A DNA stretch of 64,000 nucleotides from Haliotis rufescens (Eukaryota), in NCBI RefSeq assembly GCF_023055435.1, contig NW_025963891.1, forward strand, positions 19,344,001 through 19,408,000, read 5' to 3'. Made by a program: the position numbers and the translations under genes. Numbering within the stretch: position 1 is the stretch's first letter; each line of letters begins with the position of its first letter. The notes below the pieces were generated by a model. That model saw only the letters and a list, made by a program, of their open reading frames with translations, made no database searches and was not told where the DNA came from. Of the stretch, positions 19,481 to 52,815 are shown one piece after another.

Positions 19481-20327
19481 AGCCAAGTTACCTTTTTTGT
19501 TAGTGTATACAAACCAACTGATTAGGTGATGTCTGCTGGAAAGGGTTCTGATTCCAACAAAAGAGCAATCTTCCCAAAATGGTTACCGCTTCGCTAAATG
19601 TGATTCTCATCGATAATTACGTGCGGAGACCACACGTTGTAATTTTACAAATCAATGTTTGTCAGCTTCCTCTTACACCACATGTATGTTGAGATGACTT
19701 TACAAGAAGTCATACCACTTTCACTGATTCAGGTTATATATGGAGAGAGAATATGAAATTGAATTGACGCATCATCTGATCTCAGATAACACATGCAAAT
19801 TATTGAGAACATAAAACCCTGACCGTACATTGTTTACCCAACAACTCTCGTGCATCCATATGCCGAGAACTAGTTAGCCGAATCTGAAGCTGGTGCTGTC
19901 TTAAATCATCGTCAGTTGAAACAGGAAGCAAAAACAGGACCAGATATAACAGTTCCTTTTCATTAACGATACAAAAGTACAAGCGATGTTTTATTTATTC
20001 GGCCTTGGAAATAAATCGATTGCTTTGATGAACGCTTCAAAACCTGAGGGATATTAATACTCGTATTAATGTCACGTGCAAGAAAAGTTTATATAAATGT
20101 CAACTATAAAAACGTTTATGTAACTGTTAACTATGAAAAAGCTAAACGTCAAAGGACATTTACGTAATTTGAAAAGAAATATTAATTGTTAAACTCCCAC
20201 AAAGTTTATATATTGCACAACTATAAAAAAACCACTTAACTTCAGAAGCTTTTCAAGAAACACTGCCGTTCTGAATACATTTCAATAATGAAAGATGTTT
20301 GATTTGTGTTTTTTAAAACAAAATTAC

Positions 20328-23560: not shown

Positions 23561-23599
23561 CATACATAAAAACGACCAAACCCTCTCCATATAAAATAG

Positions 23600-27100: not shown

Positions 27101-27991
27101 CGAGCTCTTTCATCTACTCGCTCCAGGTGATCTAGACTCTTATCCATGCACTGTGTGTAATACGAAGATATCCGCTGCATTGTCAGTGGGTTTTATTGCG
27201 TCTTGACCAGTCAGTCTAGTGATCGATATTGTGAGCAACGATCCAGGGTACTATGACACACAAACAACTAAGTCCCACAGCCTGAGAAACCGATCAATAA
27301 AGTTTTTTATTATAATCGACATGGTTGTTGAGGACCGGGAATCCCCACGTGGTTTTAGAAACAATTTACGTGAAAAAAACGGGAACGTCTCGCTTAAAGG
27401 GACATACTTCTATAATGACAGATCGCCTTTGTGGTCAAGTAGATAAAGCGTCTGCCCGGAAAGTGGAGAGGTCAATGGTTGTGCCTTACACATCGCATGG
27501 CATTTCGTTTAGGATTCTCAACTCGCTACGGCTTTGCACACAGGGCATTATTTTCAGGGGAAACATTTTATCATACTATGGAGTGTTAAAGCTTTTTTAT
27601 TGGCAGTGTGAGATAAAATATGTTGCTCTGTAATTGATATGTGCAATAGCATCTTAATGATTGAAACAGATACTCATTGTTATTCTGATAGCAATTGTCT
27701 TGCGCGTGCGAAATTGACAAGGCGCCAGTCGTATCCCATTCTGTCAAGCTCCTCGAGCATTGTGTTCGAGCCACCAGGATTCATTAAAAATGTGTACACA
27801 TATATTTATCAGTTTAAAGTATTTTAAGTACAAAAGCAGAGTTGGATAAAGCACTTTACAGAGCGGTCTTTGTCCTTTACAGGATATATGGTTGGTTTTA
27901 GAGTTAAACCGCACCCGTGGGTATCACCAAATTGGCAAATATCTACGAACTGCATCACTTTGGGACTTCTCCCAACAGTAATCTCAAACGT

Positions 27992-28358
27992 AACAAATGT
28001 TATATTTGGGATAACACTTTCTTAGTAAAGTACAGATTCTCGTTCTTTTTTGGGTTGAGTCCCGTCCGGGATTCGAACCCACACTTGCCAGAGTGAGGCA
28101 CCTAATCGCCAGCACACAAAGTCAGCGATCTAAGTTAAACCCACTCAGCCACCGAGGCTTCCACAAAAAATGAAAGTCCGACAACTGGTAGCCTAGATCA
28201 CGTACTTTGAGTACCCCTCTGACAAGTGTAAATTGGCACGGCTCCCATGGCCGAAAGCTATGAAAGCTATGAATACACTATACTTTACTAAGAAAGTGTC
28301 ATCCCAAATATAACATTTGTTACATTTGACCACTTTCTAAATGGCATTGTGTATTCAT
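27992..28358. mobile_element. ~370-bp composite insertion: inverted repeats, antisense tRNA-like module, 15-bp target duplication
   Basis: agtaatctcaaacgt repeated at 27977 and 28359; ~41-bp inverted repeats at 27992-28032 and 28281-28321; minus-strand A box tggctgagtgg and B box ggttcgaatccc; empty site near 47687-47702. Confidence 0.8.
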
Positions 28359-28799
28359 AGTAATCTCAAACGTCGTTATATAACCGAAATATTGGCACTC
28401 CTCGCTCAATGATGTACTTGAAGCGTTGTTGTCTGTAAGCATAAATTTTATGTATTCCAATTATTTATTCTTTCATCCGTGGAAACAAAGTATTAAAACC
28501 GATGGATTTCATTGATAATGATCTACATGTAGCATCGAAAACTAAAGTAATGAGTACTTGCCGTATTTGGTAATATCCCCAGGCAATTTGTACTCAAACA
28601 CTTTCAGGTTATTGGACACAATAAGAAATGACAGGTGTCATGAACCCAGTCTAACTGACCAATTAGCATCTGACAGTTTTACCCATTTACACCCTCGTTA
28701 ATTCCATTGTGGCCTCTCGACAGTTCGTGAATTGTGAATCTGGAAAGTGTTATTCACAGGGTACATTGTATGTTGTTTGAATATAGGTTATCAGAGGCG

Positions 28800-28953
28800 A
28801 TGGAACAGCCTTGTGGTTAAAGCATTCGCTCGTCACGCCGAAGGCCTGGCTTCGAATCCCCACATGGGTACAATGTGTGAAACCCATTTCTAATGTCCCC
28901 ATCGTGATATTGCTGGCATATTTCTAACATGCGGCGCAAAACCAAACTCAATC
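28800..28953 (+). mobile_element. tRNA-headed SINE family C (shared insertion with 48127-48285)
   Basis: Same element at the same site in X copies 2 and 3. Confidence 0.8.
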
Positions 28954-28954
28954 A

Positions 28955-29210
28955 TTGACAAGGCGCCAGTCGTATCCCATTCTGTCATGCTCCTCGAGCA
29001 CTGTGTTCGAGCCAACGGCTTTCATTAAAAATGTGTACACAGATATTCATCAGTTTAAAGTATTTTCAAGTCCAAAAGCAAAGTTGGATAAAGCACTTAA
29101 CAGAGCGGTCTTTATCCTTTACAGGATATATGGTTGGTTTTAGAGTTAAACCGCACCCGTGGGTTTCACCAAAGTGGCAAATATCTACGAACTGCATCAC
29201 TTTGGGACTC
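28955..29210 (+). repeat. ~255-bp direct duplicate of 27715-27970
   Basis: ttgacaaggcgccagtcg...tgcatcactttgggact occurs twice; absent at the paralogous site near 48275. Confidence 0.9.
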
Positions 29211-30861
29211 AGTCACTTAAGATTATCGGCTTTTCACTTTCTGTGAATTGGAAAACGCATGAGGACTGAGTCTGCCTTGTTTGCCTTGTGATCACTGAGA
29301 GCATTATATGTCGATATCGATTGTACATGGTTTTGCTCTCCTTATTTGTAGCCATGTTTGCTGAAGAAAACAGAGAAATGAGTCAACGTTGGGTATTTTG
29401 CTCCAAAAATAACATTTAAATTACAGAGCTTGACTCATGACAGTATTGTCCTTCAGATAGAATGAGGGTTGCGGGTTAGAACAGGTCCAAAACAACCTAT
29501 ACTTGTACACGGCGACTAAATGGTGCTCGACTGATTGTATGCCATCGTATCCCGACGACAGGGAGGTTGCTTTCAACATCAAAGATTCCATTTTTTCTCC
29601 AGGTCGTTGTCCTTTAGATGTAATTGTTGTTGATTGTGGCGTTACACAAACACACTGACAGATACAATACATCGGAATGTGCAGGCTATTTGGCTATGAT
29701 AGTTTACAGAAACGTTCCGATTTTTCCTCTGAGATCTATATTGGTTGCTTCCCTTTATTAATCTTGCACACGACAGATCAGTGTCATGCATATTCATATG
29801 AAAAGTCACTGTGTCGCAACCAACGTTCACAGAGGTTATCGTGTCAATGAGGATACATGAGGTCAGTGTTATATCTGTAACGATGATGACCAAATATAAT
29901 CAAACTGAGTGTGGCGATGCGCTCATGTGACCAAGGGGAGCTGAGCTGTTTTTGTTGAAGGCATTTGTTACTTCTTCCCTTTCGTATTTTCCTATACATA
30001 CATCACCGGCCGCATCTATGATTTAGCAAATTATAAATCATCAGACCGAGGACAATCCTGAACAACGGAGATTTTAAGACTATAGTTTGTTCCAGACTAG
30101 TCTGCAAATTGAGTGTAATTGTCTGGTAGTCTTAAACCAAGTAGAAATGCATAAATAAATCTCAGAACGGTACGCTCTTCAGCTTTACCATTGCACCATT
30201 TTACAGATATAAAGGGAAGCAACATATATTATCATAACATCCCGATCCCGTTAGTCGCCTCCTACGACAAGCATAATCGCCTTTTAGGGCAAGCATTCAT
30301 TGCTGAGACGTATTTTACCCCGGATCTTCACGGGGCGAATATAAAATGGTTTCAAAATAAAACAATTCATAATATCCACACAACAAATAATTTTTACAAA
30401 ATATTGAAAAAAATCAACAGTAACTCGTATGTTTTGTGAATGTGCTCAATATATTCACAGTGTATACGCAATATATTACATTAAGGATATAAAACTTAAA
30501 ACAAGTATCATTCAATATACCTGGTACAGGGAAATAGTGAACCACGCATTGTGTTGTAAAATGTACTGTTTATTCAATGGCGCACACGATGTAAAATGAA
30601 ATCGAAAATATGAAGATTAAACAAAATATCTAAAAATAGATCAGGTATACATTGAAAATGTAGATCACAACACGTTTATAGAAATGTCAGTTTTTAGGTC
30701 TGCATTACAACCCAACAATGTGAGAAACAGCAAAATCTACAGATTGAAGCCATGATATGGTGCCGTCTTTTTGTCAATATTTTTTGGTTGGCAAGTCGCT
30801 CCTCCAGCTGTTCCTTCTTTCTATTCTGTTGTCCGAAAGAGCCACATGGGGTCAGTTGGAG

Positions 30862-32367
30862 TGAGTGAGTGAGTAAGTGAAATTTAACGTCCCATCGGCA
30901 TTATTCCCTCCATATCGCGACGAGACCAAGTTTAATATGTTATCTGTGCAAAATAATATTTAAAATCAATTCATGCATACTATATTTAAAAACAATTATG
31001 AAACATATTTGAGCATAACAATATAAAACAGTTTTAAAACACGGGCTATAGGCCACCAGTTACCAAAGCAAGGCCACCTCGCTGGGGATCATGGGGACTG
31101 ACAGTACCTCGGCTTCCTGCATGACACCACAGCAGGATTTACGTCATCACTTTAGCTACTGGTGGTTGTTTATAATACTAGCCAATTTTAAAAATTGTCA
31201 GCAATGAGTTGGCTTAAAAACACTGGTTGATGATAGTAACATCGATTATGATAGGATTGTGTGTCACACACGGGGACAATATTTATACGCTACGTTAACC
31301 TCCTGGACAGAGCCTTCAATAAAGTCAGTTGGTAATAGCATCACACCAAAATTAAAAACAAGCATTTAATTATTCACATACACATTTAAAATTTATTATA
31401 TAGACCAATTTCTTTCAAATAGCTGATAATGAGATGCCCGCTGACACGGGAAAAGAGATCTTTCAGATTTACGCTTTGATAATGTGAAACCCTTGCGACT
31501 GCAAAGTCCACACAATCAGGCAATAAATACTTGACGGTGAACCTTTCATCACAAGAGATACACTTAGGAGGTTCGTCCTCATCTGTCTTAAGCAGATATT
31601 CGTGTGTGAACCGACTGTGGCCAATACGATACATTGGTTATAAGATTGTTGATATACTAAAGGATTAGTTTCTGACTTTTTTAGCTGGGTTAAAGTGAGG
31701 TCTATTTCTTGCTTCACCATCTGCCAGGGAGGAGAAGACAGAAGACGGTAAGGTGATATAATATTTAGATCTATAATTTTAGCTGCAGTGATGTGTGGTT
31801 GAATTCCGATTCCAAGTGGTGGTTGGTTGGTTGGTTTGTTGTTTAACGCCGCACTCAGCAATATTCAAGCTATATATGACGGCGGTCTGTAAATAATCGA
31901 GTCTGGACCAGACAATCCAGTTATTAATAACATGAGCATCGATCCACGCAATTGGGATATGATGACATGCATGAACCAAGTCAGCGAGCCTGACCACCCG
32001 ATCCCGTTAGTCGCCTTTTACGACAAGCATAGTCGCCTTTTACGGCAAGCATGGGTTGCTGAAGACCTATTCTAACCCGGAATCTTCACGGGTCCCAAGT
32101 GGTGGAACCAGGTTTGATAGATTTCGAAACAGGTTTTCATATTGAGGGTGGAAAGCACATGCTGGATTGGATTTATTTGAATGAAATTTAGTAATGTATT
32201 GCAGTGAAAGTTTAAAGCGGCGCAGTTCGAGTGAAGGTTCATCGGCCTCAACATACCAACTGTCCACGGGAAAGGTCCTAAAAGCTCCAAGACAGAGCCT
32301 TAGGCCTTGATGGTGTATTGTGTCTGACTTTTCTACATTGCTTTTGCAGGCTCCACCATAGACAGTG
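30862..32367 (-). mobile_element. 5'-truncated I/Nimb-group LINE with internal deletion of RNase H
   Basis: 'HQGLRLCLGAFRT.P.DS.YVEADEPSLELRR.KLSLQY', 'RIGHSRFTHEYLL...C..C...TVK..L.DC'; 3' tail (ACTC)n; 14-bp TSD ggggtcagttggag at 30848 and 32368. Confidence 0.88.
31823..32094 (-). mobile_element. SINE family A nested in the LINE
   Basis: TSD ccaagtggtgg at 31812 and 32095. Confidence 0.93.
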
Positions 32368-33209
32368 GGGGTCAGTTGGAGGATCGATGCCTAAGTGAAA
32401 CTGTTCGGATTTGAATTATGAAATTAATGAAATTAAATACATTGGGGTGACTGGCAGTGACGAACTACCTTGCATGACAGACCGGTACAGACTAGGAATA
32501 GCCTTGTATATGGTCGTTATGATAGGGAAATGATTTTTTTCGGAAAACACATAGATTACTTATATATGCTCACATTATGATAAAATATTTGTCAGGTGAA
32601 AGCAATTCACATACTGGTAATTTACGTGTCTTGGCTGCATCACATTTCTCATCCTGAGTTAAGGTCACCTATCAAGAGTGAAACAGACTATAGCCTTGAA
32701 ATCACCGGGCCGTTAATTTTAATCTCTCAAGCCTGCCGGCAAAGTGAGAACAAACCGTCTCCTCGAATCTTCAGCGCCGTCTGGTTCTGGAGAATACAAT
32801 CACAGCATGCAGTTAATCTATAACTTGAAAGTTTACTGACGGAAAAGAGTAACTGTGCTTCATATAAAAAAAAAAATGATTGTATTCTGAAATTAGATAA
32901 TGCATCTTTCAATACATATTCATGAAGACATCTCTCTGACTTTAATTTCGTGATTCACAATTTGGATGTTTGCGTGTTTGTTGGGCATGATACTAACACT
33001 CGTGAACAGCACATAATGATCGTTTAGATATCAGGTGCTCATTAAACACATTTGTTTAACCGTAAATAACCCTTACGCAATGGCACAACTTGCTGAAAAT
33101 TAACATCTACGCGCTGTGAATATGCTGCAAACAGGAATGGCGATAAACGAAGTCGCCAGACATTTCAAAGGTAATAGAAGGTAATTATTCCTGGGCTGAG
33201 ACCAATTAA

Positions 33210-33630
33210 TGACACAACCGTTCTCAGCCGGTTGAGGGAACAACACACCCGGCCCGGACGTCTAGTGATACGCCCAATTTTGCTTCTACGTCGCCATCAG
33301 GCACGCCTTGCTTGGTGTAGACAGCATCTGGGATTCAGAAGACAAGACTTGGACAGTATACTATTCACAGATGAGTCCAGGTTTCATATGTTCAGCTCTG
33401 ATGGTCATGCAAAAGTTGAAGATCAAGATCGTTCAAGATCATGTTGTACCCTTTGTGCAAATGCAGGTACGTAACGTTAAGTTGCAGCACGTCAAGTTGC
33501 AGCACGATAATGCCCACATGTTGCACCTGTTGTAACAGACTTTTTTTAGGCAGCATAACATTGCTGTACCGCCACAGCCGGCAGTTTCCTCAGATCTCTT
33601 CCCCATTGATCATGTCTGGGATGAAAGTAC
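33210..33630 (+). mobile_element. Tc1/mariner relic (unit 2)
   Basis: 'RRHQARLAWCRQHL..RRQD...ILFTDESRF', 'LQHDNA', 'PIDHVWD'. Confidence 0.9.
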
Positions 33631-33902
33631 CGTTACCCTTTTTGTTAGTATAAACAAACCAATGGATTAGGTGATGTCTTCTGGAAAGGGCCGTGATTCC
33701 AACAAAAGAACAATTTTCTCCAGATGGTTACCATGTCGCTAAATGTGATTCTCATCGATAATTACGGACCTTTTCAATGTTCTGCGGACATCTATGTTCA
33801 AAGAGATCACACGTATTTTTACAAATCAATGTTTGTCAGTTTCCCCTTACACCACATGTATGTTGAGATGACTTTACAAGACGTGATACCAACAGGTCGG
33901 GA

Positions 33903-34160
33903 GACCCGTGAAGATTCCGGGGTAGAATAGGTCTTCAGCAACCCATGCTTGCCGTAAAAGGTGACTATGCTTATCGTTAAAGGCGACTAACGGGATCGGG
34001 TGGTCAGGCTCGCTGACTTGGTTCATACATGTCATCGATCCCAATTGCGTGGATCGATGCTCATGATATTAATCACTGGATTGTCTGGTCCAGACTTGAT
34101 TATTTACAGACCGCCGTCATATAGCTTAAATATTGCTGAGTGCGGCGTTCAACAACAAAC
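33903..34160 (+). mobile_element. SINE family A inserted in the left TIR
   Basis: Full-length copy. Confidence 0.92.
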
Positions 34161-34868
34161 CCAACTGGTGTCAATGCCCCTAACTGATAGAATAAACTGG
34201 TCCTGTGTGGCTATATAAACATGCGAGTTTTGTCCGTGCGTCGTCTGTACTACTTTTTCGCCTGATGGTGGGTATAAAAAACATGTCAATGTTCATTACG
34301 AAAAAAACCTTGTTTCATTCATCAATTCAAAAATGACCTGAAATGTACTTTGTCATCCCCTCCCTCTGTCCACCATGCTATCTCCACTGCCACTTTCTAG
34401 ATCCTGCTCCTCCTCCTCCATATAATCGCCAGTTTCCGTAAGGAAATTACTCAACGCATTTCTGTTGCGTGTGGTTCTTTTCCACTGGTAGTGGATGTCA
34501 TCAGTACTCTGTAAATGAAGGTTCTATATAATGAATTGATTTAATGGGTTTCCAAAGGCATATATCATAATACATTATGATGTAAACTACAAATATGTAA
34601 TTTAAAGAAAATTTTTGACTGAATATTGCCACATTTTAATACGTCTGTATAACCCTTAAAACAAACTGGAATGCTTTTAAGTTTCTTCTAGATGCTTTCC
34701 ACGTATAGGGCTATCGTCATTTTGGTGGACTTTTCCGACCCTCTGCCTTCTTTTTGCGTAATGAAGATTGTCTTCAGTCTGGGTCTTCCACCTTTTTCTA
34801 GAAGATTCTCCTTAATCATTATTTTTCTGAAATGTCACTATTTTCCTAATAAACATACGCAAAAATAA

Positions 34869-34869
<1 letters not shown>

Positions 34870-34910
<41 letters not shown>

Positions 34911-34912
34911 TG
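34870..34912. repeat. (TG)n microsatellite
   Basis: Directly visible. Confidence 0.95.
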
Positions 34913-35467
34913 TTTGAGACAGAGAGACAGTGAGAGAGGGAATGGCGTATATATAAATACCTATATTTTCTAGTGTTGTTTTGTTGCAATGATGTGCCAC
35001 TGCATTATATCGGGATCTAAGACGTGATTTCCGTCCATTCCTTTTGGGTGCGGTGTGCCAAGGGCTTGCCTCTAAATGCTTGCTTTGTCTTAGCCAAGAC
35101 CTCCATCCTGCTATCTCTTGTGACAGGGAATTGTCAGTGACTGTTTGAAATGGTACTGACAACTCAGCACCAACTGTTTTCATCTGTTATCTGTTATCGG
35201 GGTATCAATGGGTCTTAAAGGTATTTCATATGTTGTGATATACTATCAATTTTACCAAGTTTTAATTAATTTAAAACACATAATGTAGGTTTAATGTACC
35301 GGAATCATGCATATAGTAATGTTTTCATTTTTTTCCAAATTAAAAAACCGTATTCCAATTAACATTTTTACGATTCTTTTAACGAAACCCGTACATCGAT
35401 CGCAAACTCTGGTTGCACCAATTTCAACATCGTCTCATGTAAGTACCCAAACTTCTCCTGAACCGCT

Positions 35468-37970
35468 TCAAACATAACTTTTAGTGTACAGTGTGAAAAG
35501 AATGGGGCCCAGAACTGACCCTTGGGGAACCCCACAAGAAAGAACAAAACTATCTGACGTTGCCTCATTGACAGTGACTGACTGACACCGTCCATCTAAG
35601 TATGATGTAAACCATTTGAGAGCATTTCCTTCTAGTCCTATCTGATGGTGTAAACAGTCCAAAAGTTTGATGTGGTCTATGGTATCAAATGCTGCAGAAA
35701 GATCAAGTAGAACAAGCAAGCTTACGTTACCTCTGTTTGCAGATGTAAGGAGTTCATTGAAGTCTCTAAGTAATGCAGGGCATTGAAGTGTTCGGAAGTC
35801 GAATTTTTACTGCCTTCTCAAGCACTTTCGAGATGAAAGGTAGGTTTGATACCGGACGGGACGGTAGTTTTCCAGCAAATTTGGATTCAGACCAGGCTTC
35901 TTGAGGAGAGGTTTAACTATAGCTTTCTTGAAACTCTTAGGAACTTCACCTGATGAAAGACTGAGGTTGATAATCTTTGTTATGGCAGGAAGTAGAGTGT
36001 CAATGTGATCAATGACGATCTTTGTTGGAATTTGATCTAGTTGACAGAACGTAGGTTTTGAATCAATGATCATTTTCCGGATTTCTAGTTCTGAGAACAG
36101 TTTCAAATCCTTCAGAGGTTCATCATTGAAACTGTTTTGCATGTCATGTAGTAGCAGGGGACTGTCACGTAAACAATCTGGAATGACGTTTGTGTGACTG
36201 TCATGGTTGGACTTCACATCTAGGTTTTGTCGAATATTTTGTATCTTGTTGACAAAGTAGTTGCTAAAATCACTGGCTAATTGTTTGCTGCTCGCTGATT
36301 TTGGCAGATTCTTGTCGGTCTCCTTGCCAATCAAAGAGAAAGTAAACTTATAGAGATTGCCTGGACGACCCACACTGTCCTTGATTTTCTGTAGGCAGTA
36401 GGCTGTTTTAGGTACTTATCTGCTGAGTAACGGCATTTCGTGCCGCTTTATAGATCTGTCTATGAACTTCCAATTTTGATTTACGCCACTGACGTTCAGC
36501 AATGCGTCTAGGTGCCTTTGCACGTGAAACAGTATCACAATACCAAGGAGCTGCAGGCCTACTAGGAATTTGCTTGTCTACACCTGGTGCATGTAGATCA
36601 AGGAGATTAGAAAGAGTGATGTGATAAGACCGACAAATCTCGTCTAGATCATTGGGTGGATCTATCAGTAGACTAGATTCTTTCAAGTCACATGAAAATG
36701 CTGATGCATCCATATTCTTGGTGTTGCGACACCGAACGCTGACTTTGATTCGTGAAGGAGCTTTAAGGGACAGCTCAATGAATACCATGTACTGATCAGA
36801 TATGTGTATATCCCATACTGACACATTGGATATGATGTTACTCTCCCTTCTGGTCACAACCCAGTCAATAATGTGACCAGACTTGTGATTTGGGCTGTCC
36901 ACATGTTGTTGTAGTCCGTGAGAATTCAATAGCCTGGCTAATTTCTTAACTTCCGCTTTTTCAGTTTGTTCATAATGGACATTAAAGTCTCCAAGAAGAA
37001 GTATTTTTTCCTGTTTGTAATTTTCGAACAGAACTGAAAAATCCGCATAAAACTGAGATTGGGGAATTTCATTTCGTTTTGATGGAGGTGGTCTGTATAT
37101 GCATGCAATCGAATACTGACACTTGCAATTGAGATAGTCCACTCCATCAGTTCGAATGACTGAAAGTTGTGTCCAGTTGAATCAATAACAGATAAATCAA
37201 TGTGTGATTTATGGACAACTGCAATTGCCGCCACCACCTCCGGATTTACGTGGAAAATGATTAAATGAATACCCGATAGGTGTCATCTCGGCCACTTGGG
37301 ATTCGTCTCCACGTTCTCTGAGCCATGTTTCGGGGAATACTACCAATCCGAGTTGATAATCCGTCACAGCATCAGCAATATCGATAGCTTTGTTCCGAGA
37401 CGACTGGGCATTCCACAATGCGACAGTTAAATTTGAAGATTTTCGTATGGGATGCACTCTTATAATATTTGAGAAGTCAATGTCATTCCTAGTATTGCCA
37501 GATTGACATGGTCGGTTATATTGTCCATATACAACTTTGATTAGTCTTTCTTTCTTCCTCCCACTTCGAGTGCCTCTCCGCGTTCGCTTACTAACACATA
37601 TATTTAATTCTCTAAGGCAATATATTATTGAGGGTGGTATCCACTGTTTTACTTCTGAATTGAGAGAAAGAAGGTTTTCTCTAGTGTAGTGTTCAATGCT
37701 TGGGGTTTCTTTGTCCTCCTTGACTGTTGGCCAAGGCTGGTTGATTGTCCCCATTGTTCTACACCGGTCCCAAGCTGAGGTGTGATTGCATGTAGCAGTC
37801 AAATTTGTAAACTTATGGCTGTAGTTTTCATCATGAATTGAATTTCTTCATATGAAACACACAGAAATGTTCCTGGTCTTCTTAGCTACATGAAAGTCAC
37901 AAGTGATCACGAAAGATAGCAAAAAAGGGAGAGCTGTGATTTTCTGCTGCCAGGCGGCGCGAGCACACTC
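35468..37970 (-). mobile_element. CR1/L2-group LINE, APE endonuclease plus RT, frameshifted, 3' part missing
   Basis: 'LWNAQS.RNK', 'ETWL', 'IYRPP', 'GDFN', 'HKSGHIID', 'PLLKKP.L....LENYRPV', 'LVLLDLSAAFDTIDH', 'GVPQGSVLGPILF'. Confidence 0.95.
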
Positions 37971-38199
37971 TCACACTATATATATAAAATTTGTATCAGA
38001 TACGAACACTTATTCCCTTCAGCCGTAGTCAGCGACGCTACCAACGGAGCTAAACCTGCATTTGTGAGTTTCTGTAGATTTAAAAAACAGATTGCAATGA
38101 ATAAAAATATTAACACTTATAGACCGTTGTGTACAAAACGGTAGAGTATAACTTACTTCATTCTTGGTTAAGTATGGTTAAGTTATTCATGTGTAGTTC

Positions 38200-40620
38200 T
38201 TATATTCGATTTATACCACTTCAAATTACCCACAATCCTTGGCCAATGTACCTATAATTGGTATGTGAGACACGTGCTTGACTATTTCTAAACTGTTCCA
38301 ATTTGGGAAGATTTCTGAAGCTCCTCAGCCATGCATCATCTGTGGGTACACCTGGAGGCATCCACATTTTCACTTTTCTGTTGTGATTCTCCAATTCAAA
38401 GTCACCACCTTCACTTTTACTGTGATGACCGGAGGGAGAAATTACCTCACACTGATTAGGATAAGTGACAATTTCTGGTGGGGCTTGTAATCTCATATTT
38501 TCATCTCTCAGAATGAGTTCTTGATAGAAGTTGCTATTCATTGCTTAAAAAAAGACTGGAAAATTAATCCCGCGGCTGTGTATCATTGCTTGGCTGTTGT
38601 TTCTCCTAACAGCAGAACGATATGTGAATAATGGAATGATGAGTTCTAACCAAAGGCCAGACAGGAATTTGACATGATTTTTATGTTGCTTCAGCCAAGC
38701 ATGAAATGCAGAGATAGTGCACAAATGTTGCTCCGATGCCTTTGGCAGTAAGAAACTATACAAAGTTCGTCCGTGGAACCATATAGAAATATAAGGAGTA
38801 TTTCCCAAGACTTGTGGTGGTTGGTGGCTGACTAAGCCATATTGACAGCAGCTGGAGAAAAGAAGCCAAGCAACTTTGCAACATGTTGTAAATATGGTCA
38901 CCATAGAAATTTGAAAATTGCCCTCACACCATTCATCTCAATGTGTCCTGCCCCAGGTACAACCAGAATATGCTTGAAAAGTTGATGACTGGCATCTACA
39001 ACAGCATCATCAATGGGGTGATCAATACCACATTGCTTACTCAAACCCTGCAGGCCACTTTTGACAATAGCCTGACAAACTGGACATTTGTACCATTTAG
39101 TGAGCATTCTGCATAATCAATTGTAAGGAGAACCACCGCATCCGAGAACTTGGCACATTCTACTGTTACCAAATTCACTATCTGAACATATTTTATTCAG
39201 AACAGTTTGAGGAACTTTCATATGATGCAGGATTGACCATGGCTGGATCACCCAAACTAATTTCAGGTTAAATAATTGAATGGCCAGAGGTTACAACATC
39301 ATCAGGATTATCCATTTTTTTAACAGGAACCACTGGAAAATGAATGTGTACATTCATCAATATTGTCACTGAACAAACCATTTCTACATGTCAAGCTGTT
39401 AACAACTATTTCCAACCTGCTTTCCAAGAATGTATCCACTAGTGATGACAATTCATGATGAAACTTCTTACGAGCAAGACCCGTGAAGATAAGTCTTCAG
39501 TAACCCATGCTTGCCGTAAAAGGCGACTATGTTTGTCGTAAAAGGCGACTAACGGGATCGGGTGGTCAGGCTCGCTGACGTGGTGATTGCATGTGATCGG
39601 TCCCAGTTGATGTCAATCACTGGATTGTCTGGTCAGACTCGATTATTTACAGACCGCCGTCATATAGCTGGAATATTGCTGTGTGCGGCGTTAAACAACA
39701 AACAAACAAAATCTAACGAGCAACATCCAAAGCCTGTGCCATATCGTCCAAATTACAAATTTGTAACCAAGCAATAGGTGAAAATTGGGGACAACATTGG
39801 ATTTCACTGCTGGGGTCAATTATGTACATAATGTTTGTCATGACACTACATTTTGGTCTATGATTTATTGGTACCTGCCAGGATCTACCAATCACTTGGT
39901 TCTTATCAAAGAAAACTGTCAAAGAGCCTTTTTAGGGGCTATGAGATGTGCTTCAGGGCCAACCTTGAAGCAGGATGTAAGTGATGGATAGGCACCACAG
40001 GTTGAATTAGTTTTTGCTACCAGATATACCAGATATCGGCGTGATGATTGTGGGAAAATAAAGGAATTCAGCACATCTTGCTAACATGATAGTTTTCTTG
40101 GAAGATTGAAAAGTGTCGGTATCCTCAACTGTGTGGGAAACTAATGCACATAAGAATGTCAACAAGAGGACATTTCTACTTTTCATCCAGGGTTGAATGT
40201 TTAAATTGTCATAAAAACGGGAAGATTTATATTGATCTCAAACTTCTTTTGTGTCATCTGCTAATTGGGAATGAATGTAGCTGCCAAGGTCACGTGACAA
40301 ACAAGTGAGTTCATACTCCGACAGTTTATCATTTGACAAATCATCCAAAACACTTTGTACGTTTTCATTCAGTTTGTCTGTCTCATAAAATGGAGATTAT
40401 TTTTTCAGTTGTATAGTTCGCACAGGCAGTGCACAAGTAGGTTGATCTGGGCTGAAGGTACTCTAGCTCTTTTAGTTTCTCTTAAACCTTTTGGCGAGTT
40501 TTCTTGATTTAATTAGGTACACTTGGAAGTCTTGATTTTTAGAAAAGATTTCATGCTCGCTGCAACTGCATTTTCTGCCCATGTTGTAATTTTAGGATAT
40601 ATAGCTGTAACATTACAATA
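38200..40620 (-). pseudogene. Decayed putative DDE transposase of the TIR element (resembles DUF6589-type proteins by motif)
   Basis: 'FFDKNQVIGRSW', 'LGDPAMVNPASY', 'LGCGGSPY' (likely from GCDG), 'YKCPVC', 'VPGAGHIEMN', 'NHHKSW', 'YRSAVRRNN', 'EGGDFELE.HNRKVK.W.P.GVP' in order, with stops and frameshifts. Confidence 0.7.
39478..39711 (+). mobile_element. SINE family A inserted in the transposase
   Basis: TSD tct(t/a)acgagcaa at 39466 and 39712. Confidence 0.92.
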
Positions 40621-41734
40621 AATAGTATTGCAATGTTATATTTTTTAATACTTGTTTTCTTTTATGGCTTATTGTTGGCAACCAAAAGGACATTTGAAAA
40701 TAATACTCCAAATTTTAAACCCAAGGTAAGCGCCGTAAAACCACGTGTCCAAATTACGAACGCTTCATTCATTTCTGCGAGCAACCACGGTTTCAACGTG
40801 GCATGTATTGTCTACCATAGTTTTAGTGGGCGTTGGGACACAATTTTGCCGTGGACAGAGAGAGGGGTTGACATTTCAGGTTATTATTTACTTTCAATGT
40901 AGTGTTTTTGACTGATTTAAAGCACAGAATGTGTCCAAATGGCGGAGGGACACTCGGGTTGACAATAACCTGCGCAACAAACGGGGTAATGTTATAACAA
41001 TCGATGAATGAAAGAAGTTTTTGTAATGAACATTGACATGTTTTTTATACCCACCATCATGCGCCAAGTAGTACAGACAACGCACGGACAAAACTCGCAT
41101 GTTTTTATAGCAACGCAGGTCCAGTTTATTCTGTCAGTTAGGGGCATTGTCACCAGTTGGGGTTTTTCCCCGACCTGTGCCATGAGAATATGAAATTGAA
41201 CTGACGCATTACCTGTTCTCAGGTAACACATGCAAATTATTGAGAGCATAAAACCCTGACCCTGACCCCGACCCTTTACCCAACATCCCTCGTGCATGCA
41301 GATGCCGAGAATTAGTAAGTCGAATCTGAAGCTGACGCTGTCTTAAATCATCGTCAGCTGATACAGTTAGCAAAAACTGGAACAGATATGAAAGTCCCGT
41401 TTCATTAGCGATACAATAGTGCGAGCGCTGTTTTATTCATTTGGCCTTTGAAATATACCGCATGCTTTGATGAACGCGTAAAAAACCTGAGGGATATTAA
41501 TACTCGTAACTGTTAACTATATAAAAGCTAAACGTCAAAGGACATTATCATTTTTTATTTACGTAATTTGACAAGAAAGAGTATTGTTAATCTTCCACAA
41601 AGATAATATATTGCACAACTATAAAGAAACACTGAACTTCAGAAGCTATTCAATAAGCACTGATATTCTGAATACATTTCACAAATGAAAGATGTTTGAT
41701 TTGTGATTTTTCAGAACAAAATTCTAACAAAATG

Positions 41735-42240
41735 TTGCTTTTCTAGCAGCATAACCATTAAGACCCATCTACTAGCCAATAGCAGAGGCACCAGCAGCTC
41801 AAGTCCCAACCCAGTAGATGTACACACCAGATCCCCTGCAACTGTGGCCACCAATACATTGAAGAAACCCTCAGATGTCTCAACGCCAGACTCAAAGAAC
41901 ATCAAACCTGAGTTGACATCCGCCATTTCTGAACACATCCTCAAGAACCAAGACCATACCATTATGTGGGAAGCCAGCAAAGTCCTGTCTACCAACAACA
42001 ACTGGTGACACAGAAAACACCAAGAAGCCGCTGACATCAGGAGACACCAGCCGACCATGAAACGTGATCAGGGAGATGCCCAGTGCTTGGGACTTACTGC
42101 TTTGATTATTGTCTGAGCTAATAATCCTTCTGGCCTCCATTTCTCCATTGCCATTTCCATTGTTAATACCCATCAGTACTAATTGCCCCCCTGTCCCCCG
42201 TTTGCCATTTGCCCATTGTCTATTACCAATCAGTGATATT
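41735..42240 (+). mobile_element. Penelope GIY-YIG C-terminal fragment (paralogue of 20328-21143)
   Basis: 'SAISEHILKNQDHTIMWEASKVL....W*HRKHQEAADIRRHQPTMKRDQG'. Confidence 0.85.
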
Positions 42241-42244
42241 TTAT

Positions 42245-43860
42245 ATAATTACCTATCAGGGAGCCATTTACATGTACCTCTTGGAGATCAGAACGTTTCT
42301 TAAATAAACACTATCTCGGCATGTGGTCCCATAAACGTTTATTTAAATTTTGCTCGATTTTACCACCAGTTGTATTTGTATTGACCAGATATCATGATGC
42401 AGGCAATAATAGTACGCTTGCATATGTTGACCAAAATTAATAATATATGTATAAAAAAAGAATAAGAGTAACCAGTCTTGATTATCCGCCCAAACAGATT
42501 CCATTTGGCCTAAAACAATAATAATATATGAATGGACCACTGAGAAATGGACCACAACAAAAGACAATGTATTCACTGTTGGTTGTTCAGTCAAATATGT
42601 CACTGTAGTTGAAAAGTACATTGAACTTGATGCCCCCCCCCCCACACACACACACACACACCACCCCCAGCTTATGATTGTGGGTTCGAATCCCGGTTCG
42701 CCCCGATCATGTTTCTAGGCTTGTGAGCACCATACCCGTGCACATTGGTTTCACCGAAGTTTGAGACCTGGATCACTTCGGTCTTTCCTCCCAAGTTGAC
42801 ACGATGTGATAAACTGGAATACTGTTAAAAGCGACGTTAAAGCCAAATCACCGTTCCTCCGATCTCTCTAGAATGGTCTAAAAACTTAATCATATGTTGA
42901 TCGAGTGCATTACCGAAGCACATCAATCATATGCCAGAAATTCATTACAACTTGGCAAGCTTTTGTACATATATGTTTTCCTAGTCAAACAATTTGTTCA
43001 ATAAACACGATAAGAGGTTCTTTCAAATTATCCAGTGTTTGCATGTAATTTACATTTCAACATCAGCGTTTGAAGCTTTCATTTCTGTCGTAGTTTCTTT
43101 CATCAAACATAATTCAAATATTCTCTCCGCCAACACGAACAGGTATGTTGATCAACAAAGCTTTTGCCTTTTAATCTTATTCAAGGCAAATGTGTTACGT
43201 TACATGAACAAGTGTCTTATTTCCATTTATTCAAAAACGATTTCTGCTCCTATAGAATTCAGGGTTGCTGTGCCCTAGGGGAACAGGAGCATTTGAAATT
43301 TCCCAATGTCATATAATACATAGTAGGAATGTTTCATTGAACGAATCATTTTGAAAATGTTTAATGGTTGATTTTCATTAAAGAAAATACAGCTTCTACA
43401 CTAGAAACACAATCGGAACGAACCGGGATAAAATGTTTCTGGCATGTCCAAGGGACGTAACTCTGCACATCGAATTGCGACGCCTCAGACGACAGGGCCA
43501 ATCGTGCCTCCTCGGTTGAGTCGAAGAGCTTTTGGACTACATAATGCTTGGCAATGATATGAAAGCGGTCATCTGATAGATGTATTTCAATTTCATTTAT
43601 CTGGTGATCGGAACCAGATAAGGGATTGTGTTCCTTCCTATAAGCATTCTTGAATAGTGTTGAAATCGGCGTTAAATCCATCTCACTCACTCAGTCACTT
43701 CTTTATCAATATCAGTATATAGTTACGTAGAACCCCACACTCTTTGGCAAGTTAGGTGTCCCTATTGGAGAAATGTTTTGTTGTAGCACATATATAGTTA
43801 TAGTGACCAACACGTACGATTAAGTAAGAGTTTGAAGTCGCTACTCACACATCAATAATG
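42245..43860 (-). pseudogene. GPCR pseudogene Y, copy 2 (partial)
   Basis: Collinear with 21410-23530; TM1-like 'NTLSFVVVHFSVVHSYIII' in ORF 42343..42657. Confidence 0.5.
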
Positions 43861-43864
43861 CCTT

Positions 43865-46800
43865 AGCATATTGTTACGTTCCTCATGATTATACACGTAT
43901 TTCATTTTCTCCAGAAGGTCCAGAGGAGTAATATCCATACACTAATTAAATACAAATCCAATCTGACCCGATTAATGATTCGAGATGTCTAAAATTATTC
44001 GTTGATGTCTAGAGAGGTATACCCTGACAACGAACAGTGCAAACTGAAAACATGTTGATGTCCACCTAGGTTAACAGCTGCTTTCGATGGTCACTGTTAT
44101 GTGACATTTTGTCCAGGAAAAGCTTCTCCCGAAATTGGTTGAAGAAAATTGCTTGGTGGTTATGGATTTTGTGGATGCACAATTTCAGCGAAAGTAGACA
44201 TGTGGCATGCTTCACGTTTGATTATCATGCACATAATCATGTTTGAATTAATTCGAGTGATCATCTCTGCAGTGATTTCTGCAATATGTAGCAAACGTAA
44301 TTGGTACTAGCTTCAGTTACTCCGTACACATGTACAGTAAAACCATGTTAACTTGAATACCAATGTAATGATATGGTACCTGGTGAGTCGTCATCAACAG
44401 TTTGGTGTCAGTACACTCCTTGTTTCGAACTACGGACAAGTCGATTTAGGTTTTTCGAGTTAAAGAGGATTTACTGTATTAAACACTGGAGGCATTAAGA
44501 CTATTCTGTGGTAAAGGGATAGTCCGCCCGCGGTTGTTATCTTGGCCATGACGGATTACCTTTTGAAATACATGTACACATGTTCCAGGAGTGTTATATG
44601 GCAAGAATAAGGCTTTGTGTGTTACTTCTTTCTGCACCAGGAACAATTGACTACAATCTCATGCTCAGCAACGAGACATTCTAATGAAGCTCTTGAGCTT
44701 TGATGTCAAAGAACGACCTTCAAACGAAAATTGAAATGACTTTATACATACGTTGAAAGTGGTAACATATCACCGCGAGGGCCCCTGTTGATAGTGTACA
44801 GGCTTAGAGAAAAAACATGACACCTACACCTAGATTAAGAGGTCGAAAATAACCTTGGATGTAGAGCTCTTGGGATCTGTAGCACAACTGGCAGAGGGAT
44901 ACATGTAAGCCTTGAAATAATCCTCTAGAGATTCTCGTGCCACATTGTATCTTCAAATGCCTATGACTAGGATATCACGTCGCGCTGTGTACTGTGCACT
45001 TAAGACAAGTCGGGCAAAGGTAAGTGAAGTTGGTCTCGGAGAGTAGGTGGATGGAGCGACTCTTGAGAGTTTCTAAGGCTACAGTTGTGCCCCCAGACTA
45101 ATGATCCATGTCATGATCCACACATAACATAGACTGAAGGAGAACATGTAAATACTGTAAATGTGGGTCAGGTTTAATTTAATATTAATCCCATGTGACC
45201 ACAACTAGACAGGCTGTGATGCCTAACTGTGTCCGGGGATGCCGAGGGAGGACTACAATTTCACTGTAGACTGCAGATTTAATTTGTATTAATGTTCGTG
45301 AGGAAATTGATTGGTTTCTCTTAGGACATTTAAGAATCTAACATTTGCCTGGAGCTTATTGCCATTTTTCACTTGGACATAACTGTCTGCTCCACAACGG
45401 TGGAGAGGAATTAGTTAAATCTACAGGCAGGTAGATGATAGACTTCAAGAAGGGGATGTAAAGCATTACGCTCCAAAGGTTCATGTCACAGTCGCATGGC
45501 AGGAATACTGCTGTGCGGCGTCAAGCAATACATACTTACTTCTTTCCATATTGTATGAAGGGTGGCTTTTAACGGTAGGGCACGACCTGATTACTATTTT
45601 CGTGAACACCTGGTGTCATCACTGATTTTCAGTAGTCCAATCATATAATTTCCACAGCTATTTTGCCCTTTGCGTTAAATGGAAATTTGTTTCGGCAGAA
45701 AATCTAGGCTGTTTTTTTCTCTCCTGCATTTACAATTTATATTTAAAGTTTAGTGTTTTACTGGTGACTATTCTGTTATGCAAGACTTCTGTTACTGGCA
45801 ACGAAGAAAGGGAAATTAAGATTCTTATGACTTCTTCCACCGCAACATGAAGTACAATTTTGTCTGTGCATGGCAGTGGGTGATCTAACATTCTTGTATC
45901 AGTCCTTATTTATATAGACAGAACAAACCTATGTCGAGAATACTATATTTAGTAGCGCTTTTGATAGTGTCTAACGGTACTCCTATCTTACATCGAGGAA
46001 GTGAAGCAGGGGTTGTAAAGGTGAAGGCTTGCAAAAAGCCACAGAATCGTTTTCGCTTCAGTCAGACTTTAAGTTTGTTTGAACAAAGAGTAATATCCTG
46101 AATTTCGCCTCATTGATTTCGCCACCTAGAATCACACGTGACTCGTTATGTAAAGTGTGTCAGTTAAAGGAGCAAATACCGTTCGAACGGCTCGTCTTAT
46201 TGATCCTTTAGGAATTTGTTTAGCCTTACATTAGGCAATCCCAGTTGTGAACTTCGGTCTTCACACTTTAACAGCTTGAGAGATTGTGGAGCAATGGGGT
46301 ATGTTACTTGAAGTAAAGGAGAGAAGGCAGATTTAATCTTGGCGTCTGAACGTCACCCACCAAAACACTGACCACAGCTTGAAGAGTGGTAATTTCCCAT
46401 CAACTGTACAGTCTTTATCAGTCGATGCGATCCAAGCCATTAGTGTATGTGTGGGTAAATAAGAAGCGTCGGACGTGTGCTTCTTGTGTTTGAGCGGTAA
46501 ACCATACTGAAAAATAGAATAAAAAGTTCTCTTTAATAATTTGATTGCTGGAACTAGCTTCAATCTTTGCATTCAATACTAGGTACACATAGCTGGGGAA
46601 ATTTTAGAATGGTGTACAATGGGCATCCCATTTCTTTACAAAGGCGAGCAAGTAGTCTTAGACCTCAACAAGACGCGAAAGTGCTTTCGTGTACATTAAT
46701 TTCCTACGAAGAGCTGGCATTATGACCGAGCTCTTTCATCCACTTGCTCCAGGAGATCTTAACTCTTTGCTATGCACTGTGTGTAATACAAAGATATCCG

Positions 46801-49485
46801 CTGCATTGCCAATGAGTTTATTGCGTCTTGACCTGACATTCCAGTGTTCGATATTGTGAGCAACGATCCAGGGTACTATGACACACAAACAACTAAGTCC
46901 CACAGCTTCAGAAACCGATCCATAAAGTTGTTTCTTATAATCGACATGGGTTGTCTAGTGGTACCTAGTATGTGGTCTAGTGGATAAAGCGTCTGTCCGG
47001 AAAGCGGAGAGGTCAATGGTCGTGCCAATAGATGTTACAAAATGGTACTTGTCAGCCTGCTTAGTGCTCGGCATCAAGGGATGCCTGACACTGAGCATCA
47101 TTACTCCTGCCTTGCAACGGCTGCATGTAAATAGTTTATGTATATATTTCCGGACATTTAGTAGATGAAGCCGAGAGGATTTTATCCTTTCATGAGCTGA
47201 AATCCGAAGCCTTACCCATCGCATGACATCTCGTTTAGGATTCTGCACACAGGGGCAATATTATCAGGGGAAACATTTTATCATACTATGAAGTGTTAAT
47301 GCTTTTTTTCGGAAGTGTGAGATAAAATATGTCGTTCTGTAATTGATATTTGCAATAGCATCTTAATGATTGAAACAGTTACACATTGTTATTCTGATAG
47401 CAATTGTCTTGCGCGTGCGAAATTTAGAAGGCGCCAGTCGTATCCCATTCTGTCATGCTCCTCGAGCATTGAGTTCGAGCCACCGGCTTTCATTAGAAAT
47501 GTGTACATAGATATTCATCAGTTTAAAGTATTTTTAAGTACAAAAGCAAAGTTGGATAAAGCATTTAACAGAGCGGTCTTTGTCCTTTACAAAATATAAG
47601 GTTAGTTTTAGAGTTAAGCCAATCTCATGGGTTTCACCAAAGTCGCAAATATCTACGAACTGCATCAATTTGGGGCTTCTCCCAACAGTAATCTCACACG
47701 TCGTTATATAACCGAAATATTGGCACTCCTTGCCCAATGATGTACTTGAAGCGTTGTTGTCTGTTAGACTACATTTTATGTACTCCAATTATGTATTCTT
47801 TCAACCATGGAAACTAAGTGTTTAAACCGATGGGTTGCAATGATAATGGTCTACATGGAGCATCGAAAACAAAAGTAAAGAAGTACTTGCCGTATAAGGT
47901 AACATCCCCTGGCAATTTGTATTCAAACACTTTCTGGTTATTGGACACAAATGAGAAATGACGTGTGTCATGAACCCCGTCTAACTGGCCAATTGGCATC
48001 TGCCAGTTTTACCCATTTACACTCTCGTTAATTCCATTGTGACCCCTCGACAGTTCATCAACAGCGAATCTGGACAATGTTATACACAAGGTACATTGTA
48101 TGTTGTTTGAATATAAGTTATCAGAGGTGATGGAGCAGTCTAGTGGTTAAAGTATTCGTTCATCACACCGAAGGCCTGGGTTCGATTCCCGAAATGGGTA
48201 CAATGTTCGGAACCCATTTCTAGTGTCCCCATCGTGATATTGCTGGTATATTTCTAACATGCGGCGCAAAACAATAGTCAGTCACTTCAGGTTATCGGCT
48301 TTTCACTTGCTGTGAGGTGAGGTGAAATTGGGTTTAACGTCGCGTCCAAGATTATTGCACTTATATAGCGACGTGCATGCACGTGTATGTGTGTGTTTGT
48401 GGCTGCTTGTACTAGTCCGGACTGATGCCGATTTATAGTGCTAGCACACTAAGATACCATGCCGCAGTTTAACATGAATACCCCACTCAGACACAGTATA
48501 CTGACTCCGAGCCGACCAGTCCTTGTTTTAGCCCCTTAATGCCGAGCGCCAGACAGGGTAACAACAAGTACAATCTTTTTTCCTCTTTTTGTATGACGCG
48601 GCCCGGGATCGAACCCTGGACCTTCCGCTCTCCGGGCGGACGCTCTACCACAAGACCACGGAGGCGGTCCACTTGCTGTGAATTTGAAAACGCATGAGGA
48701 CTGGATGTGCCTTGTTTGCTTTGTGATCACTGAGAGCATTATATATCGATATCGATTGTACATGGTTTAGCTCTCCTGATTTGTAGCCATTTTTGCTGAA
48801 GAATACAGAAAAATGAGTCAACGTTGGGTATTTTGCTTCAAAAATAACATTTAAATTACAGAGCTCGACTCATGACAGTATTGTCCTTCAAACAGAATGA
48901 GGGTTGCGGGTTAGAATAGATCCCAAACAACCTATACTTGTACACGGCGACTAAATAGTGCTCGACTGATTGTATTCTAACGTATCCCGACGACAAAGAC
49001 GTTTCTTTCAATAGCAAAGATTCGCTTTATTCTCCAGGTCGTTGCCCTTTGGCTTGAATTGTTGCTGATTGTGGCTTTAAACAAACACACAAACAGATAC
49101 ACTACATCGGAATGTGCAGGCAATATGGCTGACGGTGTGATAATTCGGGATCATGATGTAAAAGTTTCACAGGGCTCACCATAAATGTCCTCCACATTTC
49201 ATACATTTTCAATACACTTTCTCAGTGATCCGCCAACAGATACCTTTCCATGCTAGTTTACAGAAACATTCAGAAACTTTGATTTTTCCTCTGAGATCTA
49301 TATTGGTTGCTTCCCTTCATTAATCTTGCACAAGACTGATCAGTGTCATGCATATTCACATGCATAGTCATTGTGTCGCAACTTTCGTTCACAGAGGTTA
49401 TCGTGTCAATGAGGTTAGATGAGGTCAAGGTTATATGTGTAATGATAACCAAATATAATCCAACTGAATGTGGTGATGCGCTCAT
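43865..49485 (-). pseudogene. GPCR pseudogene X, copy 3 (most complete ectodomain, 7TM deleted)
   Basis: MSASPHSVGLYLVIITHITLTSS at 49485; SMB-like remnant 'PCET/HHDPELSHRQPYCLH'; 'YSNNIQCTLC'; 'QLCPSEKWQ*APGKC*ILKCP' (45323-45385); 'GENEIRV' near 43905. Confidence 0.55.
48316..48669 (-). mobile_element. Full-length V-SINE-like element (family B)
   Basis: TSD cacttgctgtga at 48304 and 48670; empty site near 29235-29246. Confidence 0.95.
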
Positions 49486-50149
49486 GTGACCAGGGAGAGC
49501 TGTTTTTGTTGAAGGCATTTGTTGCCTCTTCGCTTTCGTATTTTCCTATACATACATCACCGGCCGCATCTATGATTTAAAAGCAAAAACGTTGTTGAGT
49601 AAAATAGTGACACCTACAACACTTGACGCATTACAAATACCAAGTAAAACTAGTGCCACTGCAAATATATGACTTTGATACTGTGAAGGTACAGTTTAAA
49701 ATGTCAACAAAGATTGTCATGGTTACTCAACGGAAGTTGCTGTCCGCATTGATATCTTATTAGATTCGTTGATCGTCTTGGTATATTCGAATCTTCCGCG
49801 CCATCTGGAGAATAAAATGACAGTATTCAGTAAATCCATGGCTTAAAACTTCATATTAATTAAGTTCAAAAACAAAATTGTATTCTGAAATTAGATAATA
49901 CACATATACATGAAGACATCTCAACGAGTTTTAGGTCGTGATTCGCAGTTTGCACGTACATGTTTGTGTGTTTGTTGCAAGCTAGATACTCACACACGTG
50001 GTTTGTGAACGTGAACAGCAGACACGGAATTTTTAGCTGTCAGGTGCTCACAAAAACACTTTTCTTTAACCGTAAATAACGCTTACGCAATGGCACGACT
50101 TTTAAGCGCCATGGGTATGCTGCAAACTTGAAAGTTACAAAACGATTCG

Positions 50150-50650: not shown

Positions 50651-50769
50651 GACGTGGACCTACAAAAACGGAGACCACACGTGGTATTTTTACAAATCAC
50701 GCTTGTCAGTGCTTGGATTCATCTTATACCACATGCATGTTGAAATTACCTTTCAAGATATGATTCCAC

Positions 50770-52569: not shown

Positions 52570-52815
52570 ATTTGTTTGTTTGTTGTTTAACGCCGTACTC
52601 CACAATATCCCAGCTATATGACGGCGGTCTTTCAATAATCGAATGTGGATCGGACAATCCAGTGATTGATATCACGAGCATCGATCCACGCAATTGGGAT
52701 ATGATGGACATGCATCAACTAAGTCAGCGAGCCTGACCACCTGACCCCGTTAGTCGCCTTTTACGACAAGCATGGGTTGCTGAAGAACAATTCTAACCCA
52801 GATCTTCAAGGGTCC
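52570..52815 (-). mobile_element. SINE family A nested in a family D SINE
   Basis: Full reverse copy splitting ttttctccc/acattaagctg. Confidence 0.9.

Follow-up and report, generated by a model that had tools for sequence, protein, structure and literature searches.

The 64-kb window of Haliotis rufescens analysed here (by window we mean the whole stretch of 64,000 nucleotides; GCF_023055435.1, NW_025963891.1) contains, at 33893..41177, a dead copy of a DNA transposon. Our overall reading, which we hold with good confidence, is that it belongs to a multi-copy family with CAGG ends and 5-bp target-site duplications (TSD), that this family is a distinct Academ-like lineage, and that its intact relatives are predicted to encode, antisense to the transposase, a MADS-PHD protein that is a likely helper.

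A dead copy of a multi-copy transposon

The initial annotation of this region placed a complete 7.3-kb transposon at 33891..41179. The transposon is real, with limits 2 bp further in at each end, termini 5'-CAGG...CCTG-3', and the same start, CAGGTCGGG, at 33893 and at 41177. It is not complete: the 7.3-kb span includes a fragment of ~2.5 kb of a long interspersed nuclear element (LINE) and two short ones (SINE), ~500 bp of the element are gone under the LINE fragment, and comparison with other copies reveals further losses of ~440, ~150 and ~110 bp. The terminal inverted repeats (TIR), described as ~180 bp long, were recovered as the pair 34154-34327 / 41167-40999 (174 bp aligned, 88.5% identity), but those of intact copies reach ~370-380 bp. 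The left one is indeed split by a SINE, which follows its first 9 bases.

The motifs of the decayed open reading frame were all located, in the order originally given, on the minus strand (FFDKNQ 39896-39913, VNPASY 39220-39237, CGGSPY 39123-39146, CPVC 39075-39086, PGAGHIEMN 38931-38957, HHKSW 38805-38819 and EGGDFELEN 38386-38412). The window copy is dead. The second catalytic Asp (D2) has become Gly (CGGSPY), the Asn after the first one (D1) has become Lys, there are many stops and frameshifts, and the donor site of exon 1 is mutated. Along with the second Asp, this copy has lost the exons for the MADS box and the PHD finger of the predicted antisense partner described below, and it keeps only the linker of the partner.

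Searches of the 1.33-Gb genome returned at least 45 matches to the TIR and at least 19 to the coding part. Intact copies of family A measure 5527 and 5677 bp, and six copies of this family are mutually 81-92% identical. A protein search gave 121 matches, from which we delimited at least five TIR-bounded families (A to E). All start with CAGGT, and their transposases are ~33-45% identical between families. Family E is young, with two copies 98.7% identical. The suggestion that an "uncharacterised protein" family could be tied to a transposon is borne out by these TIR-bounded copies, and the TIRs, the TSD of fixed length and the dispersed copies are those of a DDE cut-and-paste element.

The length of the TSD, tentatively put at 2-3 bp, was settled by collecting TIR-bounded copies. 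The family duplicates 5 bp: of 18 paired ends, 11 show an exact duplication of this length and 15 show one with at most one mismatch, and lengths of 2-4 and 6-10 bp are each exact in at most two (3 bp in two, 4 bp in none, 9 or 10 bp in none). In this strict test the window copy was scored as a miss (one mismatch, one extra A), L057 and L058 are duplicates of a single insertion, L198 was automatically paired to the wrong end (it is exact by eye), and L207 and L210, both exact by eye, were omitted, one end of each being missed by the pattern. Three additional exact 5-bp pairs were found by eye, one of them from a distant subclade (CAGT ends, CTTAA). Among 16 hand-listed TSDs the bias is AT-rich and palindromic, leaning to TTNAA, with T at position 2 and A at position 4 in 23 of the 32 strand readings.

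At the window copy, the left TSD is TACCA (33887..33891, plus strand), followed by one extra A at 33892, and agrees with the empty paralog as far as 19717; the right one is TGCCA (41178..41182, plus strand), with one mismatch to TACCA and a flank deletion of ~28-29 bp beyond it. This arrangement fits a decayed 5-bp TSD. The empty paralogous site reported initially does exist: 19350-19717 and 19747-20325 match the flanks with no element between them, and a second element-free paralog lies near 50768 and 51186-51219. It is informative yet not clean, since the site (19713..19746, plus strand) consists of the target TACCA and 29 bp (19718-19746) that are missing beside the right end of the filled copy. 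These empty sites are supplied by a tandem segmental duplication (window 18400-33900 and 41180-53500) with units of ~20 kb and ~10 kb that are 70-90% identical.

Several further observations concern the relatives of the element. Sister families are nested or adjoining: a family-C element sits at the broken end of a family-A copy, a TIR of family A harbours a family-D element, and D and E are nested (L051/L074 5791-13353; L072 3287-8860; L198/L212), and another family-C copy lies directly upstream of L050, which suggests self-targeting or shared hot spots. The TIRs of family A (L052, L057-L063) have near the terminus a 19-bp unit, repeated several times in tandem in some elements, that is possibly a transposase-binding repeat. 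The distant subclade (C79 ~28847600-28859430, L233/L199/L234, and C605, L200) has an unspliced core and CAGT ends; its element of ~11.8 kb has the exact 5-bp TSD CTTAA, and a same-strand 119-aa frame after the transposase is faintly MADS-like, with no Pfam match. The C605 relative has a weak RAG1_imp_bd/Chapa-like N-terminus (E 0.086). One 31-nt small RNA (23 reads, one start), of the size of PIWI-interacting RNAs, is antisense to the family-E transposase (L196:6499-6529). Outside the abalone, four metagenome loci and one contig of a metagenome-assembled genome (MAG) were short or had no paired ends, and none of 193 stretches of viral contigs was TIR-bounded. A piece of a Thiodiazotropha MAG (L230, JBEVVS010000047.1), 41% identical to the transposase on a short contig of 1054 bp, is most likely host DNA in the bin.

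A predicted RNase H-fold transposase

Using as query the open 362-aa frame of copy L050, which reads CDGSPY, we obtained 638 clusters at E≤1e-3. Mercenaria, Owenia and Clytia account for the named relatives, which are uncharacterised proteins; among the Atlas clusters, taken as leads only, the nearest is molluscan and unnamed (0.91), followed by two annotated as DUF6589 (0.85 and 0.83). In 81 aligned sequences, counted where the position is present, the conserved residues are D244 (79/79), D422 (79/79), H450 (74/74), H493 (69/69) and E635 (51/53). The D, D, H and E positions proposed initially are thus found, with a second conserved His, except that the Glu of EGGDF is not conserved and the conserved one sits in DFxLE. 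The C-x2-C listed among the ordered motifs is an optional C2H2 finger and not a core motif.

The family transposase is predicted to be an RNase H-fold DDE enzyme with a helical insertion, as had been proposed. The fold was read from the model of a complete homolog, P0035 (predicted local distance difference test, 92.9), and not of the window copy. In it, D244 and D422 lie on strands, a helical insertion follows the GxGH motif, and E635 is on the next helix. VIA-align placed the P-element transposase first (Z 12.9, root-mean-square deviation (rmsd) 5.6, 323 aligned), followed by integrases; lower ranks included Hermes (Z 9.2), ISCth4 (8.5) and RAG1 (6.5). A Pfam scan of the window fragments and of P0001-P0004 named no transposase family, and a search of PDB sequences with the transposase query returned zinc-finger noise only (best E 0.025). 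The importin-binding domain of the RAG1 N-terminus (RAG1_imp_bd) was matched by eight of 53 family members, e.g., P0046 (best E 2.3e-11). The RAG1 N-terminal domain is therefore also fused to Academ-like transposases.

The predicted gene content was richer than the single frame first described, with two more exons of the transposase and a second gene antisense to it. The exons, downstream of exon 1, were delimited with the family profile and splice signals. Profile positions 825-873 match exon 3 of copy L050 (E 0.003); for positions 751-826 the match to exon 2 is weak in L054 (E 0.012), and that to the corresponding exon of families B and D is strong. RNA data give a weak hint in family B: exons 1 and 2 are linked, separated by 7 other letters, in a single contig with a depth of 2, and in X2 contigs break close to the transposase splice sites. 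None of the records that hold the sequence is registered as RNA.

A predicted antisense MADS-PHD partner gene

All five sister families carry a predicted antisense gene with an intron-split MADS box and a PHD exon. Two short antisense exons, joined at GT-AG in phase 0, give a MADS box that aligns in register with the host SRF. This was seen in families A, B, C and E, and both halves were recognised by pattern only in family D. The score of the spliced MADS box against host SRF was reached by 14, 1, 0 and 0 of 5000 shuffles (A, B, C and E, respectively). Because the intron of the host SRF gene is at the same position (KK|AYEL), the MADS box of the partner was likely captured from an SRF gene, as far as the sequences indicate; MEF2-type genes differ. 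The PHD finger is above the Pfam cut-off in family B (26.5 bits) and its pattern is present in families A to E. All five families keep the Trp of C-x2-W-x-H, which we take to be a methyl-lysine cage residue. A genome-wide search with SRF-TF gave four matches above the cut-off and 18 below; five of these 18 were verified as the MADS exon of family-C copies, and two more, unchecked, are near transposase matches.

The two genes are interleaved in families A, D and E, where the PHD exon and the second MADS exon lie inside the first intron of the transposase and the later transposase exons lie inside the intron of the partner. In family B the two genes simply face each other.

We propose the following mechanism, whose first part draws on DDE chemistry. 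The transposase would bind both TIRs, cut at the CAG ends and join these to target strands 5 bp apart, and repair of the 5-bp staggered joints would leave the TSD. The partner would dimerise via its MADS box, its PHD finger would read histone H3, and it could thereby tether or regulate the transposase on chromatin, a role that may stand in for the helicase or nuclease of other Academ lineages. The partner probably helps the transposase to find or control its targets.

The MADS-PHD protein might instead be an anti-silencing or self-regulating factor, or a conserved passenger, in a transposon otherwise as described. We regard this as a serious possibility, if not the one we favour. Antisense interleaving of the two genes could yield mutual repression. 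Some observations count both for this alternative and against our own reading of the partner. There is no excess of CArG or MEF2 sites in five TIRs examined, where they occur at chance level. The distant subclade, with the same type of CAG ends and 5-bp TSD, has no antisense partner, as judged by sequence patterns, and the chemistry may thus not need one. Other observations weigh on the identification of the gene: family D was neither spliced nor scored, the family-B copy used has a frameshifted first exon, and singly the MADS halves are below the Pfam cut-off (E 0.055 and 0.068, in two of the family-A pieces scanned). A weak search with the PHD exon of family E found no full-length partner protein among ten candidates, and the RNA contigs at the two loci compared show no joint across the partner introns. 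Yet the exon layout of the MADS-PHD gene is kept across five families with such divergent transposases, which argues against a neutral passenger.

Placement relative to Academ

The initial annotation could not assign the element to hAT, Tc1, piggyBac, MULE or canonical EnSpm. It does fall outside these groups, but it can be placed: motif order, profile matches and DUF6589 together put it with the Academ superfamily. The proposal to compare it with DUF6589 was a good lead, since 23 of 53 family members match this domain at E≤0.01 (best E 2e-9), and two of three rescanned pass the cut-off. Our Academ references are proteins retrieved by a DUF6589 search of the same genome; their labels, AcademH-like and AcademX-like, were assigned by us, also from PMC10045372, and not by Repbase. 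Two types can be told apart: in one, a helicase (DEAD, Helicase_C) faces the transposase, and the other consists of long single proteins, one of which has TAG ends and a 3-bp TSD. In these elements (L120-L125, L138/L139, L126-L137) some frames reach 1053 and 1485 aa, and TIRs are 99% identical.

The family profile matched one of the Academ-type proteins with E 4.5e-12 and two others with 1e-4 (Z=1e6). The hhalign probability was 98% for the first and 90%, 46% and 10-11% for the others, and the eight transposase motifs align in order with these proteins. In a quick tree built from five references and 22 of the 36 family rows cut, the family stands apart (SH-aLRT 98). Judging from these alignments, the family is most likely a distinct lineage in the Academ superfamily. 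We found no helicase among the frames listed for families A, B, D and E, and helicases are readily seen beside other DUF6589 matches. In exons 2-3 we saw neither room for an XPG-type nuclease nor a DTD-type motif; this comparison is blunt, as Pfam also names no XPG in the AcademX-like references.

The placement has to be weighed against the following. The AcademX-like rows align in seven of the eight motifs, and that of AcademH is out of register near D2. The two clearer AcademX-like proteins are matched weakly (the E of 1e-4, and hhalign 90% and 46%) and N-terminal of the core, and the AcademH match is near noise. In the tree, five reference rows on long branches, with quick support and no further outgroup, leave the position of the family unsure. 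The closest structure is the P element rather than Academ, and we know of no solved structure of an Academ transposase; Foldseek listed the same structure classes without significance, with no match under E 0.001 (best 0.02). TIR-bounded copies were found solely in the genome of H. rufescens.

The family might already be catalogued, e.g., as "Academ-2" of RepeatMasker/Dfam or as an ordinary Repbase Academ, and then at most the partner gene would be new. This is conceivable, but we find it doubtful. The label Academ-2 has been applied to bivalve insertions in the accessible part of 10.64898/2026.02.10.705023, and the mean length of 100 curated Academ consensus elements of bivalves is 5565 bp (from the portion of PMC10294476 available), against ~5.5 kb here; 12 of the 33 supplementary files of the latter were searched and gave no match. 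In the available text of PMC10045372, TSDs are solely of 9-10 bp (AcademH) and 3-4 bp (AcademX). No description of a MADS-bearing TIR transposon turned up in the literature outside Repbase, Dfam and the key Academ paper, and the named homologs are called "uncharacterized".

Membership of the CMCT clade (EnSpm, Chapaev, Transib and RAG-like), or a superfamily of its own beside it, would agree with the CA..TG ends and 2-5-bp TSDs of that clade (from the accessible part of PMC12730594), both found here, with the likeness of a 5-bp TSD and a facing PHD gene to RAG-like transposons (part of PMC7204232) and with the RAG1_imp_bd matches, but is improbable: 15 of 50 members lack C(2)C and 33 of the other 35 have it within a C2H2 finger, H(3-4)H precedes the Glu in just three of 42, RAG1 aligns at about half the Z of the P element, and the partner carries a MADS box in place of the kelch repeats of RAG2L and the ends are CAG, not CAC. 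The signature of this clade given in the same part of PMC12730594, C(2)C and H(3-4)H between the second Asp and the Glu, thus fails, and CMCT membership is largely refuted.

Layout of the window copy and its neighbourhood

The TIR at the transposase 3' end (33893..34391, plus strand) consists of the 9 bp, the SINE and 34152-34391, with the internal deletion of ~110 bp, as aligned to the end of L050 and to the other end in the window. The SINE inside it (33902..34151, plus strand) has many copies in the window and none at that spot in other copies of the element. Predicted transposase exon 3 (34640..34830, minus strand) is decayed and has approximate bounds, based on motifs at 34790-34813 and 34667-34684. 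Predicted exon 2 (34945..35186, minus strand) was delimited by an AG acceptor and the reading frame, its 3' bound being approximate. The remnant of the antisense partner occupies 35295..35477 (plus strand) and corresponds to the linker, both MADS exons and the PHD exon being deleted. The LINE fragment (35475..37960, minus strand), absent from other copies, encodes an endonuclease and a cut-off reverse transcriptase (Pfam: Exo_endo_phos_2 E 2.6e-8, RVT_1 E 4.8e-12). Transposase exon 1 (38293..40582, minus strand) includes an N-terminal Cys/His cluster, D1, D2 (Gly here), the C2H2 finger, GxGH, HH and E, and is split by the second SINE (39476..39715, plus strand). The TIR at the transposase 5' end (40810..41177, minus strand), aligned to other copies, starts CAGGTCGGGG and has an approximate inner bound.

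To the left of the element lies a decayed remnant of a Tc1-like transposase (33178-33600, plus strand; HTH_Tnp_Tc3_2, E 0.0008), with a paralog near 18885-19159. A 47-bp tandem satellite with occasional 51-bp units spans 5991 to ~9000 of the window.

Comparison with known transposons

These results give a function to a large "uncharacterized" family of invertebrate proteins (638 clusters). They would also extend Academ beyond the lineages with TSDs of 3-4 bp and 9-10 bp and a nuclease or helicase, as these appear in the part of PMC10045372 at hand. A transcription-factor domain that was taken from the host together with its intron and persists in five families would be a clear case of a transposon domesticating part of a host gene. 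The RAG-like parallel raises a testable question, i.e., why DDE transposons gain PHD partners, and the young copies of family E make cell assays feasible.

The Academ superfamily and its AcademX lineage were reportedly described by Kapitonov and Jurka in 2010 and Kojima in 2020. The element resembles AcademX in the order and spacing of the DN, NP, D, GxxH, R, Y and D-x3-E motifs, in its long TIRs and similar size, and in giving its best profile matches there. It differs in its TSD (5 bp instead of 3-4 bp), in its CAG ends (TAG on AcademX-like L134/135, with a 3-bp TSD), in the antisense MADS-PHD gene, in having no visible nuclease-like C-terminal extension, and in forming its own branch. With AcademH (DUF6589/PF20231-type transposase and helicase) it shares the DUF6589 matches, a second gene facing the transposase and the optional C2H2 finger in the insertion region, but it has no helicase, its TSD is 5 bp and not 9-10 bp, and direct similarity is at noise level. 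A PHD-bearing sublineage of AcademH has the PHD within the transposase, whereas that of the element is in a separate gene.

The P-element transposase (PDB 6p5a) is the best structural match, at 9% identity. P elements have a THAP domain, bind GTP and produce an 8-bp TSD, and none of these features is seen in the element.

The likeness to RAG-like transposons (RAG1L-RAG2L) and Transib lies in the 5-bp TSD and the DDE transposase with a helical insertion; with RAG-like ones the element further shares a facing partner gene ending in a PHD finger, and one of its subclades carries the RAG1 N-terminal domain. Unlike them, it has CAG ends, no ZnC2/ZnH2 motif set and no kelch repeats that we could see. 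In the accessible part of PMC7204232, RAG-like transposons are recognised by a RAG2L with kelch and PHD and by CAC heptamer-like ends; here, the partner has MADS and PHD and the ends read CAG. The resemblance is an analogy of layout, not membership. One could go further and see in the family a third Academ branch or a sister superfamily, present in molluscs, annelids and cnidarians, which acquired a RAG1-RAG2-like layout independently: a 5-bp-TSD transposase and a facing partner with captured SRF MADS box and PHD finger, interleaved by exons, that would steer insertion to chromatin with methylated H3K4, with the subclade bearing the RAG1 N-terminal domain as a candidate donor pool. We offer this extended version tentatively and think it unlikely to hold in full. 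Having the defining features of neither AcademH, AcademX nor RAG-like transposons, the element appears to work as an Academ-type cut-and-paste transposon and is laid out like a RAG-like one.

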